Positions 54,208-60,158 of a stretch of DNA of 64,000 nt are shown here, in pieces (positions within the stretch are counted from its first letter, which is position 1; every line of letters starts with the position of its first letter). The notes beneath the pieces are model-generated. The model did not search any database. It saw nothing but the letters and a program-made list of their open reading frames with translations, and was not told the DNA's origin. The stretch spans positions 1,120,001 through 1,184,000 of the forward strand of contig JAKFCY010000002.1 of the NCBI GenBank assembly GCA_036676395.1, given 5' to 3'. Made by a program: the position numbers and the translations under genes. The DNA comes from Bdellovibrio sp. GTDB taxonomy: Bacteria > Bdellovibrionota > Bdellovibrionia > Bdellovibrionales > Bdellovibrionaceae.

Positions 54208-55404
54208 ATGGGTTCATCGAATCATTCACATGAATTAAAATTAAGTAAATTCGAAGCGCCGCAACAGTTAAAAACTGCAATTTTTGCAGCGATGTTTATC
54301 GGTTTATTAGGATTAGTTTACGGGTTAATGAAGGCACCAGACCGCTTATGGACTTCTTACTTAGTGGCTTTTTTCTTTTTTGCAAGTTTGGCTTTAGGGG
54401 GAATGTTTTTTACTGCATTTAATCATGCAGCCAAAGCAGGTTGGTCAGCTTCAATTCGCCGTATTGCAGAAAGTTTTTCAAGCTTTTTACCGGCGATGTT
54501 AGTTGGAAGCTTTATCCTAATTTTAGGTTTTAAATATTTGTACCCTTGGGCTGATCCTGCACAAGCTCACAGATTAACGGGTGGCAAAGCATTATACTTA
54601 GCCCCGTGGTTTGTGATTTTGCGTTTAGTGATTTTTGGGGTAGGTTGCTTAATTTTCAAAAAGTTAATGGTTGGAAATTCACTGAAGCAAGATATCAATG
54701 GCGACCACTCGTTAACTCATAAAAACGTAGGAATTTCGATTGGTTTCATCGCTTTCTTTGCGATTTTCTTTACGTTGTTTACGATTGATTTATTGATGTC
54801 GTTATTGCCAAGTTGGTATTCAACGATCTTTGGAATCTACTTGTTAGGAGCTATGCTGCAATCAACAATGGCAGCATTAATTTTAATGATCATCTGGTTA
54901 CGCACTTCAAAATGGATGTCTGGTTACATCACTGAAGAGCATCAGCATGATGTGGGTAAATTCATGAAGGGCTTCACTGTTTTTTGGGCTTATATCGCGT
55001 TTTCTCAATTTATGTTAATTTGGTACGCTAATATTCCAGAAGAAACTGAGTTCTACTTAATGCGTTCACACAGTGGCTGGTTAGGCATTACGGTATCTTT
55101 ATTGATCTTTAGATTTGCTGTGCCATTCTTAGCATTATTACCTCGCGATGCTAAACGTAATAACTTTAACGTGGCGACTGTGGCTGTATTGGTTTTAGTT
55201 ATGCAATACGTGGATATTTACTGGTTAGTTTATCCGAATTTCTTTGATGGTGTGCCTCAGTTTGGGTTTCTTGAGATCAGCGTGTTCATCGGTTTTGCCG
55301 GCGTTTTCATGAAGTTAATGACTGGTTTTATGACTAAGAACAATCTTGTAGCGATTAAAGATCCTCGTATGCATGAGGCTTTGAATCACCACGTTACTTA
55401 CTAA
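54208..55404 (+). CDS. actF: Alternative complex III subunit ActF
   Basis: AGWS..IRR, MSL.P.WYSTIFG, HDVGKF, FWAYIAFSQFMLIWYANIPEET. Confidence 0.9.
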   Translation: MGSSNHSHELKLSKFEAPQQLKTAIFAAMFIGLLGLVYGLMKAPDRLWTSYLVAFFFFASLALGGMFFTAFNHAAKAGWSASIRRIAESFSSFLPAMLVGSFILILGFKYLYPWADPAQAHRLTGGKALYLAPWFVILRLVIFGVGCLIFKKLMVGNSLKQDINGDHSLTHKNVGISIGFIAFFAIFFTLFTIDLLMSLLPSWYSTIFGIYLLGAMLQSTMAALILMIIWLRTSKWMSGYITEEHQHDVGKFMKGFTVFWAYIAFSQFMLIWYANIPEETEFYLMRSHSGWLGITVSLLIFRFAVPFLALLPRDAKRNNFNVATVAVLVLVMQYVDIYWLVYPNFFDGVPQFGFLEISVFIGFAGVFMKLMTGFMTKNNLVAIKDPRMHEALNHHVTY

Positions 55405-55432
55405 AAATTAAAGTTATTTCATTAAGTTTATT

Positions 55433-55458
55433 AAAAGCTCGCTTAGGCGAGCTTTTTT
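55433..55458 (+). terminator. Intrinsic terminator ending the act operon
   Basis: AAAAGCTCGC-ttag-GCGAGCTTTTTT. Confidence 0.88.
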
Positions 55459-55564
55459 CGTTTTACGAGATCTCGAGTCGGTCGACGGATTGCGCTTGGC
55501 GCTAGAGCGAATCTATTAGTAATAGACTTGGCTGGAGTATTGAAACTTTAGAAGGCTTCGGATT

Positions 55565-55590
55565 TATAATGTATTTACATTGTAAATTAT
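55565..55590 (+). promoter_or_regulatory. TA promoter -10 with overlapping palindromic operators
   Basis: TATAAT (55565-55570) overlapped by AATGTA-tt-TACATT and ATTTACA-t-TGTAAAT. Confidence 0.55.
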
Positions 55591-55602
55591 TTGGGGTATT
55601 CT

Positions 55603-55896
55603 ATGAATCAGTTTGAATTCGAATGGGATGAAGGTAAGGCGACAGTTAACCTTAAAAAGCATCAAGTTGCATTTTCTGAAGCCATTTCTGTCTGGCTAGA
55701 TTCTATGTCGCTAGAGATTTTTGATTCGGAACACTCGAACGATGAAGAACGTTGGGTACGATTAGGATTGTCGGCTAGGGCAAAGGTGTTAACCGTGGTT
55801 TATTGCGAAATAGTTAGTGGTCATCGAATTCGGCTTATTTCTGCAAGAAGAGCAACTTTGCAAGAAACCAAACAATATTTTCGGGGAGGCGTATGA
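55603..55896 (+). CDS. brnT: BrnT-family ribonuclease toxin
   Basis: FEWDEGK..NLKKH.V.F.EA, EERW...G, RIRLISARRAT. Confidence 0.9.
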   Translation: MNQFEFEWDEGKATVNLKKHQVAFSEAISVWLDSMSLEIFDSEHSNDEERWVRLGLSARAKVLTVVYCEIVSGHRIRLISARRATLQETKQYFRGGV

Positions 55897-56144
55897 AAAA
55901 CGAGTACGATTTTTCTAAAGCTAAAAAAGGGAAAACGGCTAAAGATATTAAAGATCTGAAGGTTATTAAGACTATTCGATTGGATGCTGATGTACTTGCA
56001 TGGCTTGAAGTGGAAAGCGAAAAGCAAGGTATGGGATACCAAACTTATCTGAACTGGTTTTTGCGAAAATCAATGGAAGCCGGTGAGTCATTTGAAGAGC
56101 GTTTAGAAAAGCTTGAGAAGGCCGTCTTTAAGAAAAAATCTTAA
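55893..56144 (+). CDS. brnA: BrnA-family antitoxin
   Basis: MKNEYDFSKAKKG, TIRLDADVLAW, GYQTYLN; ATGA overlap with brnT. Confidence 0.88.
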   Translation: MKNEYDFSKAKKGKTAKDIKDLKVIKTIRLDADVLAWLEVESEKQGMGYQTYLNWFLRKSMEAGESFEERLEKLEKAVFKKKS

Positions 56145-56214
56145 TCACTGTAAAAGTCAGCCTCAAAACCCTTTAAAATGGCATCTTTACGGTTATTTTG
56201 GGGATTTTTGGGGC

Positions 56215-56243
56215 TTGAAATCGGCCTGAAATCGAAGCATACT
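56215..56243 (+). promoter_or_regulatory. Sigma70-type promoter of the thrS leader
   Basis: TTGAAA-N17-CATACT, 6 nt before ATG 56250. Confidence 0.65.
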
Positions 56244-56249
56244 TGATCC

Positions 56250-56282
56250 ATGCTATTTATAACTACGACCACCACATTTTAG
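56250..56282 (+). CDS. Putative Thr-rich leader peptide MLFITTTTTF
   Basis: ATG CTA TTT ATA ACT ACG ACC ACC ACA TTT TAG, 82 nt upstream of thrS. Confidence 0.75.
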   Translation: MLFITTTTTF

Positions 56283-56364
56283 TTCTCTTTCGAATGTCTA
56301 AAGCTCAATATCTTTCTATTATTAAAATTAAATACTACGCCATAAAAAATGGAAGCAGCTAAGA

Positions 56365-58344
56365 ATGTCGTCTCAAGAAATTAAAATTATATTACCTGAT
56401 AACTCTGTTAAAACTTTTGATCATGAACCTACTACTTTAGAAGTAGCGAACTCAATTGGTGCGCGCTTAGCTAAAGATACACTTGGGGCTAAGATCAATG
56501 GTTCATCTGATGTGATTGATTACCGTCTTCCATTAAAAGATGGAACTCGAGTTTCTATTGTTACAACTAAATCTCCTGAAGCTTTGGAAGTTGTTCGTCA
56601 CTCGGCGGCGCATTTGATGGCTCAGGCTGTTCAAGAGATTTGGCCTGAAGTTAAAGTGACTATTGGTCCTGTTGTTGAAAACGGATTTTATTACGACTTT
56701 GATTCTCCTTTTAATTTTACTGAAGAGCATTTTGAAAAAATTGAAAAGAAGATGGAAGAGATTCAGAAAAAAGATCTTCCGCTTGTTCGTGAGAACTGGC
56801 CAATCAATAAAGCGATTGAAGTGTTTCAATCTATGGGTGAGCGTTTTAAAGTTGAGTTGATTCAAGACTTGGCCTTAAAAGGTGAAACTGTTGTTGGTAT
56901 TTATCACCAAGGCACTTGGTTTGATCTTTGCCGTGGGCCTCACGTGCAATCGACGGGTCAAATTAAAGCTTTTAAATTGATGTCTGTTGCAGGAGCTTAT
57001 TGGAAGGGTGATCAAGCCAACCAAATGCTTCAACGTGTGTATGCGACTGCATTTCAAGATAAAAAAGAATTAGACGAATATTTAAAAAATATTGAAGAAG
57101 CTAAAAAGCGTGATCATCGTAAACTTGGTAAAGAGCTTGGAATGTTTACGTTCCATCCTTGGGCTCCGGGTTCTCCGTTTTTTACTGGTCGTGGTGCTGT
57201 GGTTTATAATGAACTGCAAAAGTACCTACGCGAATTATATTTTAAATATGGTTATAACGAAGTTATTACTCCGCAGATTTTTGATGCTGAGTTATTTAAA
57301 ACTTCAGGCCATTTAGCGAACTATAAAGATAATATGTTTTTCACGAAAGTGGATGAGCGTGATTTTGGTTCAAAGCCTATGAACTGCCCATCGCACTGTT
57401 TACTATTTGCTTCAGAAAAGTATTCATACCGTGATCTTCCGTATCGTATGGCTGATTTTGGTCGCTTGCACAGATATGAAGTATCAGGTGCATTATCTGG
57501 TTTAACTCGTGTTCGTACTTTCTGTCAGGATGATGGCCACATCTTCTGCACGAAAGAACAATTGCAAGGCGAGATTAAAGGTTTCGTGCAAATGTTAAAC
57601 GAGATCTATCAAAAATTAGGAATGAGTGAGTACAAAGTTTATCTTTCAACTCGTCCTGAAAAACGTATGGGAACTGAAGAAGACTGGGATAAAGCCGAAG
57701 GTGCGTTATCACAAGCTTTAGAAAGTTTAAGTATTCCTTATGAAATTAATCCTGGTGATGGCGCGTTCTACGGGCCAAAACTTGATATCATGTTCGTTGA
57801 TGCTCTTAAACGCCCTTGGCAATTAGGAACTATTCAGTGTGATCCGAATCTTCCGCAGAATTTTCATTTAAAATACACTGGCGAAGATAACACTGAACAC
57901 ACTCCATTGATGCTTCACCGTGCGGTGTTGGGTTCATTAGAGCGCTTTATCGGGGTTTACTTAGAGCACACGGCCGGGCATTTACCAGTGTGGTTAGCGC
58001 CGACTCAGGTAACTATCTTGAATGTGACTGATCGTGTGAATGAGTTTTGCGATAAAGTAAAAGCTCATCTTCGCGAAAGCCAGATTCGTGTAGAATTTGA
58101 TAAGCGTAACGAAAAATTGAACTTCAAGATCCGTGAAGCTCAGCTGATGAAAGTGCCGTACATGATTATTGTCGGTGATAAAGAAGCTGAAGCAGGAACT
58201 GTTTCAATTCGTTTAAGTGATGGAACTTTACATAATAACATCGCGTGGGAAAAAGCCTGCGAGATGATAATAAATAATAGAAATGATAGACAGCTGAAAG
58301 CATCAATAGATGCCGAAGCTACGGCTCAAACTTTAGGAGGCTAG
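56365..58344 (+). CDS. thrS: Threonine--tRNA ligase
   Basis: RHSAAHLMAQAV, DLCRGPHV, RDHRKLG, KPMNCP, GLTRVR, GAFYGPKLD, HRAVLGSLERF. Confidence 0.98.
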   Translation: MSSQEIKIILPDNSVKTFDHEPTTLEVANSIGARLAKDTLGAKINGSSDVIDYRLPLKDGTRVSIVTTKSPEALEVVRHSAAHLMAQAVQEIWPEVKVTIGPVVENGFYYDFDSPFNFTEEHFEKIEKKMEEIQKKDLPLVRENWPINKAIEVFQSMGERFKVELIQDLALKGETVVGIYHQGTWFDLCRGPHVQSTGQIKAFKLMSVAGAYWKGDQANQMLQRVYATAFQDKKELDEYLKNIEEAKKRDHRKLGKELGMFTFHPWAPGSPFFTGRGAVVYNELQKYLRELYFKYGYNEVITPQIFDAELFKTSGHLANYKDNMFFTKVDERDFGSKPMNCPSHCLLFASEKYSYRDLPYRMADFGRLHRYEVSGALSGLTRVRTFCQDDGHIFCTKEQLQGEIKGFVQMLNEIYQKLGMSEYKVYLSTRPEKRMGTEEDWDKAEGALSQALESLSIPYEINPGDGAFYGPKLDIMFVDALKRPWQLGTIQCDPNLPQNFHLKYTGEDNTEHTPLMLHRAVLGSLERFIGVYLEHTAGHLPVWLAPTQVTILNVTDRVNEFCDKVKAHLRESQIRVEFDKRNEKLNFKIREAQLMKVPYMIIVGDKEAEAGTVSIRLSDGTLHNNIAWEKACEMIINNRNDRQLKASIDAEATAQTLGG

Positions 58345-58346
58345 CC

Positions 58347-59084
58347 ATTAATCAGTTTAACAATAATCGTCCAGCAGGTGGTGGCGGAACAGGTAAACCC
58401 CCAGGTGGTCCAAAACCAGGTGGATTCAACCGTTTCGACAGAGATAAAAAACGTGGAGACAAAGATGGTCTTCGTGTAAATCGCGACATTCGCGCCCCAC
58501 AAATTCGTGTGATCGATGAACTCGGCGAAATGCTGGGAGTAATGACTGTGCCAGAAGGTCTTCGTATTGCTGAAGATCGTGGGTTAGACCTGATCGAGAT
58601 CGGGCCTACGGCTTCGCCTCCAACTTGTAAAATCATGGACTACGGCAAGTACAAATACGAAAACAAGAAAAAAGCCGCAGCTTCACGTAAAAAACAAGTG
58701 ATCGTTGTCATTAAAGAAATTCAGGTTCGTCCAAGAACTGATGTTCACGATTTCGAAACTAAAATGAAACATGCTCGCAGATTCTTGTTAGAAGGCGATA
58801 AAGTAAAAGTAAATTTACGTTTTATGGGTCGCGAAATGTCACATCAAGAGATGGGCTTAGAAGTTATTAATCGCGCGATTGATTTCGTAAAAGATTTAGC
58901 TCTAGTTGAATCTAATCCGAAAACAGAAGGTAAAAACATGTTCACCATGCTTGCGCCTGATCCAATGAAGATTAAAGAATACTTAAAAGCAAATCCACCT
59001 AAGGGCCAAAAAGAAGTTCTTCCAGAACTTTCTAAAGAGGACTTATCGTCAACTTCACACACTGAAGAACAAGACGAAGATTAG
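58347..59084 (+). CDS. infC: Translation initiation factor IF-3, ATT (AUU) start
   Basis: GGAGG at 58336-58340, in-frame ATT at 58347; RVNRDIRAPQIRVID, PPTCKIMDYGKYKYE, FLLEGDKVKV. Confidence 0.93.
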   Translation: MNQFNNNRPAGGGGTGKPPGGPKPGGFNRFDRDKKRGDKDGLRVNRDIRAPQIRVIDELGEMLGVMTVPEGLRIAEDRGLDLIEIGPTASPPTCKIMDYGKYKYENKKKAAASRKKQVIVVIKEIQVRPRTDVHDFETKMKHARRFLLEGDKVKVNLRFMGREMSHQEMGLEVINRAIDFVKDLALVESNPKTEGKNMFTMLAPDPMKIKEYLKANPPKGQKEVLPELSKEDLSSTSHTEEQDED

Positions 59085-59121
59085 TCGGTGGCGCCTAGCC
59101 ATCCGCAATTAGAAAATTAAG

Positions 59122-59155
59122 AAGGGCTGGTTGAAAAACCGGCCCTTTGTTTTTT
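59122..59155. terminator. Intrinsic terminator after infC
   Basis: AAGGGCTGGTT-gaaa-AACCGGCCCTT followed by TGTTTTTT. Confidence 0.8.
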
Positions 59156-59477
59156 AGTCTAAGTTATTTACTTCGTATTCTGAATACACGCCAATTAAGT
59201 AGCTTTTATAACGACATTTTTCCATATCGATCTGAACTGAACCAATACGGTCAACTGGTCCGCTTATGCCGCCATCACCATCTTTTATGATGATGTTTGT
59301 CGAACGAATATTTCCCATTAATAACGAATGGCTGATGCCCACTTTTTTAGAGTTATAAAGTCTGGCAATTTCTAAAACTTTTTTCTCGACGATAGAATCA
59401 GCAACATCGTCGCCGCATTCTGCAAAAGTGATGTTTGTGAATAAAAGAATACCTAACAATGAAATTAGAATTTTCAT
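59154..59477 (-). CDS. Small secreted hypothetical protein
   Basis: Signal peptide (ITFA-E), two Cys, GAGG RBS. Confidence 0.6.
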   Translation of the reverse strand: MKILISLLGILLFTNITFAECGDDVADSIVEKKVLEIARLYNSKKVGISHSLLMGNIRSTNIIIKDGDGGISGPVDRIGSVQIDMEKCRYKSYLIGVYSEYEVNNLD

Positions 59478-59537
59478 AAAACCTCGCTGAATTAATACTA
59501 AATTGAAATTTAATCATTCAGCAAGGATATAGAGTTA

Positions 59538-60158
59538 TTATTTAATTTTATTCATCTGAAACGGGACATGGTAATTCTGTAAAATAACGCGGTCTACACA
59601 ATTTATGCCTTCGCATTTTTGCACGATCACATCACAGTTTTGTTTTAGTGTTTGGCCAGCTGTATGGTCGATGGCTACTAAAGTTCCAGTTGTAATCATT
59701 TGCTCGACTTGTTCGTTTGCAAAAACTTGTTTTGCACTTCCAAGTGCACTTGTGGTTGCCTGGTTAAAAGTTAAAATCATATCTTGCGTATTTTCGTTAC
59801 CGATAGCGCGAATACCTTTAATTGTTTCGGGCATGTGTTCCCAAACCTTTAAATCATCAGACGTGTAAGAATGATTAATAGTCGTAGCTGGAACCAACTT
59901 AGCGGTTAGCAAATCATTACGACCAGTTTGTTGCCAGTTGGTGCGATCATTAACGTTATTTAAATTATTAAAGATACGGCTTTTATCAAAAGTCACAAAA
60001 CCCATGCGCCCAGCTTCTTGATTTTCGCCCTTGCATTGATATTGAATAGTTACAGAAACTTTAACTTGGGATTCTATTTTTTGCAGTTCTTTAAGATAAT
60101 CATTTGCAAAAGCTGCTTGAGAGGCCACTAATGAAATTGCGAATATAAGTTTTGTCAT
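59538..60158 (-). CDS. Secreted hypothetical protein
   Basis: AGGAG RBS before ATG 60158, signal peptide (AAFA-N), four Cys. Confidence 0.65.
   Translation of the reverse strand: MTKLIFAISLVASQAAFANDYLKELQKIESQVKVSVTIQYQCKGENQEAGRMGFVTFDKSRIFNNLNNVNDRTNWQQTGRNDLLTAKLVPATTINHSYTSDDLKVWEHMPETIKGIRAIGNENTQDMILTFNQATTSALGSAKQVFANEQVEQMITTGTLVAIDHTAGQTLKQNCDVIVQKCEGINCVDRVILQNYHVPFQMNKIK

Follow-up and report, generated by a model that had tools for sequence, protein, structure and literature searches.

Bacteria are known to autoregulate their aminoacyl-tRNA synthetase genes by means of T-boxes, classical leader-peptide attenuators, and tRNA-mimic operators. The thrS operator of E. coli is a precedent for the last of these, and pheM is a leader that controls a synthetase operon (pheST). 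Another mode of control has been described in mycobacteria, where leaderless small open reading frames (sORFs) with consecutive cysteine (Cys) codons (Ms5788A, the "Cys ribulon") are reported to hold stalled ribosomes that block the duplex sequestering the next ribosome-binding site (Canestrari et al., bioRxiv 10.1101/834739). The discussion of that work makes a comparison with ermC and cat, in which a ribosome paused in the leader ORF frees a paired downstream start (10.1101/834739). In Streptomyces lividans, a leaderless thrL has been found directly before thrS, again with no clear Rho-independent terminator (Droste et al., 2021; PMC8079986). We have analyzed a stretch of 64,000 nucleotides (nt) of Bdellovibrio sp. 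(GenBank assembly GCA_036676395.1, contig JAKFCY010000002.1, positions 1,120,001 to 1,184,000; hereafter the window), in which a mini-ORF of ten codons with five consecutive threonine (Thr) codons, uORF1 (upstream ORF 1), precedes thrS and infC, the genes of threonyl-tRNA synthetase (ThrRS) and initiation factor IF3 (Table 1). We propose, with moderate confidence, that this element, placed at the 5' end of the thrS-infC mRNA, is a terminator-free sensor of Thr-tRNA that acts through translation.

Half of the ten codons of uORF1 encode Thr, with all four Thr codons present, and its stop codon is located 82 nt upstream of thrS. Re-reading of the sequence confirmed what the original prediction, made from the letters alone, had described, i.e., a TTGAAA-N17-CATACT promoter, a 6-nt gap (TGATCC), the ATG of MLFITTTTTF at 56250, and a run that uses every Thr codon. 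Its claim that neither a Shine-Dalgarno motif nor a terminator nor a T-box precedes thrS also held in the sequence and in the terminator and Rfam scans. There is no Shine-Dalgarno motif within the 6 nt before the uORF1 ATG; TGATCC had been considered as a Shine-Dalgarno-like candidate and was dropped, having zero spacing to the ATG and no conservation. The terminator scan gave no terminator-like site between 56144 and 56365. An Rfam scan of 55000-59600 with E-values up to 10 detected neither a T-box (RF00230) nor Thr_leader (RF00506), the best E-value being 0.13 and all matches lying far under the gathering scores, and the same database returned tRNAs only for 12 related or other-phylum loci at E-values up to 0.01.

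With the mycobacterial poly-Cys sORFs, uORF1 shares the position of a leaderless first cistron (here predicted), the consecutive codons for one amino acid, and the lack of an intrinsic terminator. Two or more codons in a row for the sensed amino acid are a mark of those sORFs, and uORF1 has five. The distance from the end of the -10-like hexamer to the sORF ATG, 6 nt in the window as a promoter prediction, likewise fits the geometry of a transcript that starts at the sORF. Control of the poly-Cys sORFs at the level of translation, with a stalled ribosome preventing the formation of a start-hiding duplex, has been proposed or shown, and the same model is proposed here. The differences are also clear: the codons here are for Thr, the target is a synthetase gene and the host belongs to the Bdellovibrionota, whereas the mycobacterial sORFs sense Cys before a biosynthetic operon in Actinobacteria. 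Moreover, the downstream start here has no Shine-Dalgarno motif and is reached by a mini-ORF relay or a UAAUG overlap, the putative duplex is short, AU-rich, and weak in the window, and, since this genome has a single such locus, there is no regulon comparable to the Cys ribulon.

The likeness to S. lividans lies in the leaderless (here predicted) leader ORF directly upstream of thrS and in the lack of a clear Rho-independent terminator; the S. lividans peptide, MKRVRPFLETTPGFVPAR, has only two Thr residues, which are not C-terminal, and it shows no sequence relation to the leader of the window. Like E. coli thrL (RF00506) and pheM, uORF1 is a short leader ORF with a cognate-codon run shortly before the stop, but unlike these attenuators it has no terminator/antiterminator pair and no Rfam match, its start is predicted to be leaderless, and its link to the gene seems to be made through translation. 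Unlike in ermC and cat, where a drug gives the pause signal, the signal here would be tRNA charging; the structures are also much weaker, and a Shine-Dalgarno motif plays no part.

Within its own genome of 3.40 Mb, uORF1 is exceptional. The non-coding DNA contains 10,821 mini-ORFs, only four of which carry four or more Thr in succession, and of these uORF1 alone starts with ATG and alone adjoins a Thr-related gene; the remaining three have TTG starts and unrelated neighbors. The same genome has 73 uORFs with at least four of one residue in seven. None of them is another cognate amino-acid leader, judged by reading the unannotated downstream N-termini, and the non-cognate examples include a phenylalanine (Phe)/Val-rich uORF before an apparent ileS and an Ile-rich uORF before an apparent argG. 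The genome encodes one tRNA-Thr(GGU) and one tRNA-Thr(UGU).

The upstream regions of thrS in relatives were studied in a sample of 64 Bdellovibrionales loci and, later, in 130 unique genomes from across the order, each with 150 nt or more of upstream sequence, using as controls dinucleotide shuffles, the reverse complement, and 422 other genes of the window's own genome. Because related genomes are not independent, all the counts that follow overstate significance, which has to be set against the argument from conservation. A thrS match was found in 41/41 related genomes searched. The Thr-run uORF that the original prediction expected in relatives is present, with varying synonymous codons, as in MLFIITTTTF, MLFTITTTTF, MFNITTTTF, MFMTTTTPF, MKLSTFVQI[M/L]TTTTTSF, MIKSSSTTTLLTTSMTF, and MYTTTLTF, and in further families as ..SMTTTF, MQECLSYSITTMTF, and MSITTF. 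ATG-started uORFs with at least three Thr in a six-codon window were found in 31 of the 64 loci, compared with 1/64 in the reverse complement and 0.86 in shuffles, and those with at least four in 22 (0.06 in dinucleotide shuffles). The other four-fold codon boxes were not enriched in these 64 loci: the threshold of at least four was reached by TCN in 1 locus and by the rest in 0-1.

The order-wide sample gave the same picture, with at least three Thr per six codons in 42/130 genomes (2.0 expected) and at least four in 22/130 (0.11 expected), and the Thr signal is spread over many genera. A short ATG-started uORF ending between -10 and +20 nt of the thrS ATG is present in 114/130 genomes, as against 38.9 after shuffling and 138/422 of the own-genome genes, and this thrS-adjacent uORF has at least two Thr in its last six codons in 55/130 genomes, as against 1.5 after shuffling and 7/422 of the own-genome genes. 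By family, Thr enrichment was strong in the window's genus (18/26 genomes), and it was also found in 18/22 genomes of family f2 (tail measure), in 13/29 of f6, in 4/4 of f10, and in 3/4 of f5.

The Thr codons hold a defined place in the leader. Among 149 unique loci, 54 have Thr-rich leaders, and in these the share of Thr is 48-70% at positions -2 to -6 counted from the stop, while position -1 is never Thr and is Phe in 40/54 and Ser in 8/54. The leader Thr codons are ACC (73), ACA (36), ACG (27), and ACT (13) (n = 149), the genome-wide share of ACC being 16%. Conservation also extends to the nucleotides: in 38 leaders, TTT is found in 37, TAA in 31, and ACA before TTT in 20, and the base 5' of ACA stays G while its codon varies between ACG, ATG, and CTG. 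Judged from these comparisons, the mini-ORF is a real, conserved regulatory leader and not a chance ORF.

A different uORF was observed in the Bdellovibrio genus proper (L059-L067, L071, L075, L132-L135). It has 17-45 codons (MQMH..SS..TT..S*, the asterisk being the stop) with 2-4 Thr, lies near a TACTAAT-like -10, overlaps the thrS start by TAATG, and has a GUGAUG...CAUCAC hairpin around its own start.

The wide distribution of the coupled uORF bears on a reading in which the leaderless uORF and its relay would do no more than load ribosomes constitutively onto a thrS without Shine-Dalgarno motif, the Thr codons being a by-product of the RNA motif ..ACG ACA UUU UAA UG... The coupled uORF of those 114 genomes occurs in lineages without Thr enrichment as well, loci L020, L021, and L044 retain a leaderless uORF with 0-1 Thr, and the strong nucleotide-level conservation (TTT, TAA, ACA), with a G before ACA that is fixed across codon changes, is what such a motif would leave; leader-peptide reinitiation has also been proposed as a general expression booster (PMC4833913). 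However, the enrichment is specific to Thr and goes beyond the paired arm, Thr being found at 35-70% of positions -2 to -7, and the synonymous codons in the Thr runs vary across lineages. Furthermore, Thr leaders cognate to thrS are found again in Streptomyces and, with classical attenuators, in unrelated phyla, and uORF1 is the only Thr leader of this kind in the genome of the window. Ribosome delivery explains the coupling, not the Thr specificity, and we consider it quite unlikely that it is all that the leader does.

The promoter of the window, taken by itself, is at chance level, since it matches 9/12 positions and 8 such sites were counted where 11.2 are expected in the 4.2 kb scanned. 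Its place relative to the uORF is what recurs among relatives. Close relatives of the window have TTG(A/T)A(A/T) at the aligned -35 place, and a -35/-10-like pair 16-18 nt apart lies directly 5' of the uORF in 30 of the 38 loci with a Thr leader ending in Phe-stop; the -10 end is 6-7 nt from the uORF ATG in 24/38 loci and 8-11 nt in 6/38, and no adjacent promoter was found in 8/38. This fixed geometry, with the -10-like end 6-7 nt from the ATG across loci, implies a leaderless transcript, which in the window would most likely start at the A of ATG 56250 or 1 nt earlier.

In ten loci (L013-L016, L020, L021, L047, L050, L053, and L056), the -35 TTGAAA, about 50 nt upstream of the uORF ATG, was observed inside the loop of a hairpin (e.g., GGCCTCTTGAAAAAGAGGCC) that has a T run after it. 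Since this arrangement resembles a terminator, a single element seems to serve there both as terminator of the upstream gene and as promoter of the leader.

A leaderless start would also suit a mechanism based on mRNA stability, in which a ribosome paused in the first 10 codons would bury the 5' end and shield the AU-rich thrS-infC mRNA, yielding more ThrRS at low Thr-tRNA. The ermC-type 5' stabilizers are a precedent for the protection of mRNA by a paused ribosome. The conserved leaderless geometry, in which the Thr run begins at codons 3-5 of the short leaders, agrees with this mechanism, as do the AU-rich and unstructured leader and spacer and an RNase E/G homologue in the genome. Nevertheless, the Thr run is remote from the 5' end in leaders of 17-30 codons, it is anchored to the stop codon rather than to the 5' end, and RNase J was not found in the genome with TIGR00649. 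Stabilization as the mechanism is very unlikely.

The way from the leader to thrS is as characteristic as its beginning. In the window, uORF1 stops 11 nt from uORF2, and uORF2 stops 2 nt from the thrS ATG, making a relay of ribosomes to thrS possible. Relay ORFs of differing sequence in the same arrangement were found in L004, L031, L070, L107, L008, L009, L034, L042, and L068, and a looser rule adds L010, L012, and L039. An unbroken chain of ORFs from leader to thrS, with hops of at most 15 nt, exists in 32/38 loci. For spacers of at least 60 nt, the chain is kept in 11/16 loci, compared with 0.74 after spacer shuffling, and 0/1000 shuffles attained 11. Among the 54 Thr-rich loci, 40 have a spacer of -1 to 20 nt between leader and thrS, and in 16 there is either an overlap of the leader stop with the thrS ATG or a gap of at most 4 nt. 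Elsewhere, the leader stop overlaps a decoy ATG (TAATG) that opens MSIS* (ATG TCG ATC TCA TAA) or MTF* (ATG ACC TTT TAA), and decoy mini-ORFs of these types end 3-7 nt 5' of thrS. No terminator was seen by eye in the leader-thrS spacers of relatives. The leader appears to be wired to thrS through translation and not through a terminator.

In L017, L018, L048, L049, L054, L055, and L118, the decoy sequence ATG ACC TTT TAA (Met-Thr-Phe-stop) was also observed; it follows a longer Thr-rich uORF and lies 6 nt upstream of the thrS ATG. A Met-Thr-Phe-stop ending is common to many leaders in families f2 and f10. Its counterpart in L019 is ATG AAA TTT TAA, and the nearest mini-ORF in L126 is MNF. Programmed frameshifting at UUUUAA, a reading raised by L015, was dropped, given that the +1 frame does not join the thrS frame.

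The spacers also bear on the mechanism put forward in the original prediction, in which a paused ribosome would mask a Rho utilization site. In this tnaC-like, Rho-dependent transcription attenuation, the ribosome paused in the leader would cover a G-poor Rho loading site and so allow read-through into thrS. The counts on which it was based, 18 C and 6 G in 56261-56340, are correct, nearly every locus has a leader with little G (0.07-0.16; C, about 0.2), and the C-rich ACC is preferred among the leader Thr codons (73/149 vs 16% genome-wide). The genome encodes Rho (PF07497 match of 118.8 bits in a 613-amino-acid (aa) open frame), no intrinsic terminator is present, and Rho has been put forward for terminator-less leaders of Actinobacteria (PMC1262725). 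However, the C content of the window region equals the upstream background of the genome (0.19 vs 0.186) and its C-minus-G reaches only the 93rd percentile of the genome's own upstream regions. More importantly, the short spacers of 40/54 loci leave no room for a loading site between leader and gene, and relay ORFs maintain translation across the long ones, so that no loading site would be exposed there; in the window, the spacer is covered by uORF2. A paused ribosome would, in addition, leave thrS itself untranslated and open to Rho. Thus, of the original proposal, the leaderless Thr-codon sensor that controls thrS-infC without terminator or T-box is strongly supported by conservation, while the masking of a Rho site is not supported as a conserved mechanism, and we regard Rho-dependent attenuation as unlikely.

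The leader end can pair with the next start codon. In the window, a weak hairpin over the uORF1 stop is formed by a 5' arm that corresponds to the last Thr codon plus the Phe codon and a 3' arm that includes the uORF2 ATG, and for the group of loci of the window the sole consensus helix is an 8-pair ACAUUU:AAAUGU stem. Pairing was evaluated in the minimum-energy fold of a 51-nt segment, with shuffling of the last 18 nt of the leader as control: the next AUG pairs with these 18 nt in 22/37 unique loci, compared with 9.46 +/- 2.62 after shuffling, and 0/300 shuffles attained 22. The predicted helix encloses the stop codon in 32/37 loci (mean z -0.61). The register of the helix differs between lineages, and for this reason native and mismatched arms and shuffles were compared instead of testing covariation in a fixed register. 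The own downstream arm gives -4.33 kcal/mol and that of another locus -3.78 kcal/mol, with 90/5000 permutations equal or better. In some lineages the arms differ in matching ways, as GACAU/AUGUC, ACAUCA/UGAUGU (L009), GACCA/UGGUC (L061), and ACGAC/GUCGU (L083).

An operator is the established device of E. coli thrS, and a hairpin at this place could be taken for one, i.e., a mimic of the tRNA-Thr anticodon arm whose binding by ThrRS would block initiation, and many relatives do have a small hairpin beside the start region. Its loops are UUUA, UUUUAA, or similar, without U-NGU-AA, whereas the tRNA-Thr loops of the genome are UUGGUAA and UUUGUAA, and UGU sits in the stem as part of AUG-UC. An operator would also leave unexplained the conserved ATG, the reading frame, the stop codon, and the promoter spacing. 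The mimicry of tRNA-Thr by the hairpin was rejected, since its loops lack the anticodon-loop pattern, and control by an operator of this kind is extremely improbable.

Taking coupling and Thr specificity together, it can be robustly inferred that the ribosome reads the availability of Thr-tRNA on a leaderless mini-ORF physically coupled to the translation of thrS; translational attenuation would be the favored way of transduction, by analogy with the systems described above. According to this model, transcription would start at the A of ATG 56250, as suggested by the conserved promoter geometry, and uORF1 would be translated as a leaderless ORF. The five Thr codons ahead of the terminal Phe and the stop would make the transit of the ribosome dependent on Thr-tRNA-Thr. 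Ribosomes would get to thrS by termination and reinitiation via uORF2, a relay that would provide the basal expression of an essential gene, and ACAUUU, i.e., the last Thr and Phe codons, would pair with the next AUG. When Thr-tRNA is scarce, the ribosome would pause in the Thr run, keeping the anti-AUG segment single-stranded and halting as well the uORF traffic across the downstream start; the freed start would then be open to other ribosomes, resulting in more translation of thrS and also of infC. The unmasking step would rest on analogy with ermC and the mycobacterial poly-Cys sORFs. Induction upon pausing is assumed because of the known logic of synthetase control and of the thrS leaders with a strong terminator of Thermoanaerobaculia (see below).

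Several observations weigh against this model. The 56245-56400 segment folds with -12.8 kcal/mol and a z of +0.87, no better than shuffles, and so has no significant structure; the hairpin of the window has a predicted energy of -2.1 kcal/mol (z +0.37), also no better than shuffles, and no covariation was seen in the consensus helix of the loci grouped with the window. When ribosome stalling was simulated on the transcript of the window, the unpaired fraction of the uORF2 AUG was 0.39 in the free RNA and 0.34 with the ribosome at Thr5 or Thr7, and that of the thrS AUG was 0.33 free and 0.35 stalled, i.e., there was no unmasking; only a ribosome at the stop codon opened the uORF2 and thrS AUGs (0.68 and 0.57). 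Only 6-25 nt separate the Thr run from the thrS ATG in many relatives, where pausing at the last Thr codons would place the ribosome over the start instead of freeing it. A pure relay would predict less, not more, thrS at low Thr-tRNA. The Thr enrichment is absent in families f12 (0/19, window measure), f3 (0/5), f4 (0/2), and f8 (0/3). Finally, a search of sequencing runs for RNA gave a single metatranscriptome run that shared a small part of the region, and this run yielded a sole contig of 181 nt inside thrS (56799-56979), and none on the leader or its start.

A related possibility concerns the second gene of the operon. IF3, the infC product, disfavors initiation on leaderless mRNAs, according to work in E. 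coli; a leaderless mini-ORF with a Thr run would then integrate both signals, the charging of tRNA-Thr and the level of IF3, in one device. In such a purely translational relay, 70S ribosomes would enter at the leaderless mini-ORF of the 5' end and be passed on to thrS by UAAUG overlaps or by hops of at most 15 nt over decoy mini-ORFs (MSIS*, MTF*, uORF2), with tRNA-Thr charging sensed at the Thr run and the IF3 level at the leaderless start. That the thrS-infC operon of Bdellovibrionales works in this way seems rather doubtful to us. If true, both operon genes would be feedback-controlled without a protein-binding operator or a structured riboswitch.

Thr-codon leaders before thrS were also found outside the Bdellovibrionota. 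In Thermoanaerobaculia (Acidobacteriota; L074, L076, L078, L079, and L082), thrS is preceded by the leader ORF MRTSSTTATTRTTETPPPPCR, with 8 Thr in 21 codons, which lies about 130 to 65 nt before thrS and is followed by a strong hairpin and a U tract. This element has no Rfam match, and its sequence has the appearance of a classical Thr attenuator that serves a synthetase gene. The presence of Thr-rich leaders with classical terminators before these thrS genes makes thrS a natural target of Thr-codon sensing, and shows that such leaders arose repeatedly with different outputs. Short leader ORFs of another kind, MVMTPRTRRETN, MDTRTFHS, and MRTRIFHR, were observed before thrS of the Burkholderiales/Rhodanobacteraceae type (L087, L091, L093, L097, L102, and L106). 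They have in common an ACGCGAA-like motif and terminator hairpins after it, a tRNA gene is located just upstream in several of them, and Rfam gave no leader match.

Our search of the literature, covering main texts, found no description of a thrS leader like uORF1 in Bdellovibrionota. To judge from its parts, i.e., a leaderless mini-ORF, a cognate run one codon before the stop, and a translational hand-over, the element appears to achieve the autoregulation of a synthetase with almost no RNA structure, and it is conserved in most families of an order of predatory bacteria. If the direction and the mechanism were confirmed, the concept of the ribosome as a sensor on leaderless sORFs would reach beyond Actinobacteria, to a synthetase gene in a distant phylum, and the element would provide a compact natural part of about 115 nt for the amino-acid-responsive control of translation.

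Table 1. Coordinates of the thrS-infC leader, operon, and associated signals in the window.
Feature	Position	Strand	Details
-35-like hexamer TTGAAA	56215..56220	+	Read from the sequence; promoter scan
-10-like hexamer CATACT	56238..56243	+	Ends 6 nt 5' of the uORF1 ATG; 17 nt from TTGAAA
uORF1, MLFITTTTTF*	56250..56282	+	ATG CTA TTT ATA ACT ACG ACC ACC ACA TTT TAG
Putative sensor codons	56262..56276	+	Five consecutive Thr codons, ACT ACG ACC ACC ACA; read from the sequence
Weak hairpin over uORF1 stop (predicted)	56274..56297	+	5' arm ACATTT, 56274-56279; 3' arm GAATGT, 56292-56297
uORF2, MSKAQYLSIIKIKYYAIKNGSS*, candidate relay ORF	56294..56362	+	11 nt from the uORF1 stop to its ATG; 2 nt from its stop to the thrS ATG
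Weak Shine-Dalgarno-like GGAAG	56351..56355	+	9 nt before the thrS ATG, within uORF2; read from the sequence
thrS, threonyl-tRNA synthetase, 659 aa	56365..58344	+	Pfam TGS, tRNA_SAD, tRNA-synt_2b, HGTP_anticodon
infC Shine-Dalgarno AGGAGG	58335..58340	+	Inside the thrS end; AGGAGG-CTAGCC, then ATT
infC (IF3), predicted ATT start	58347..59084	+	Pfam IF3_N and IF3_C on 58509-59084
Terminator-like hairpin with T run, end of thrS-infC unit	59121..59148	+	12 pairs, 6 G-C, then GTTTTTTAGT

Concerning the genes themselves, the weak GGAAG before thrS is not conserved in relatives, where the gene is preceded, e.g., by ..CTCATAATACT ATG and where most thrS genes have no Shine-Dalgarno motif; in a crude count, a core Shine-Dalgarno word precedes 31% of the genes of this genome. 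The ORF list gives only GTG 58509 as the start of infC, and the frame is open upstream of this codon. From the sequence, infC appears to start at ATT 58347, 2 nt past the thrS stop (58342-58344), and this ATT placed behind AGGAGG links thrS and infC tightly.

An 11-codon ORF (56349-56384; ATG GAA GCA GCT AAG AAT GTC GTC TCA AGA AAT TAA) overlaps the thrS start in another frame and is probably due to chance. Directly 5' of the leader region, at 55591-56144, there is a pair of genes with overlapping stop and start that encode a BrnT ribonuclease toxin (101 aa) and a BrnA antitoxin (83 aa), placed between the terminator-like hairpin of the upstream gene (55433-55456) and the promoter of the thrS leader.

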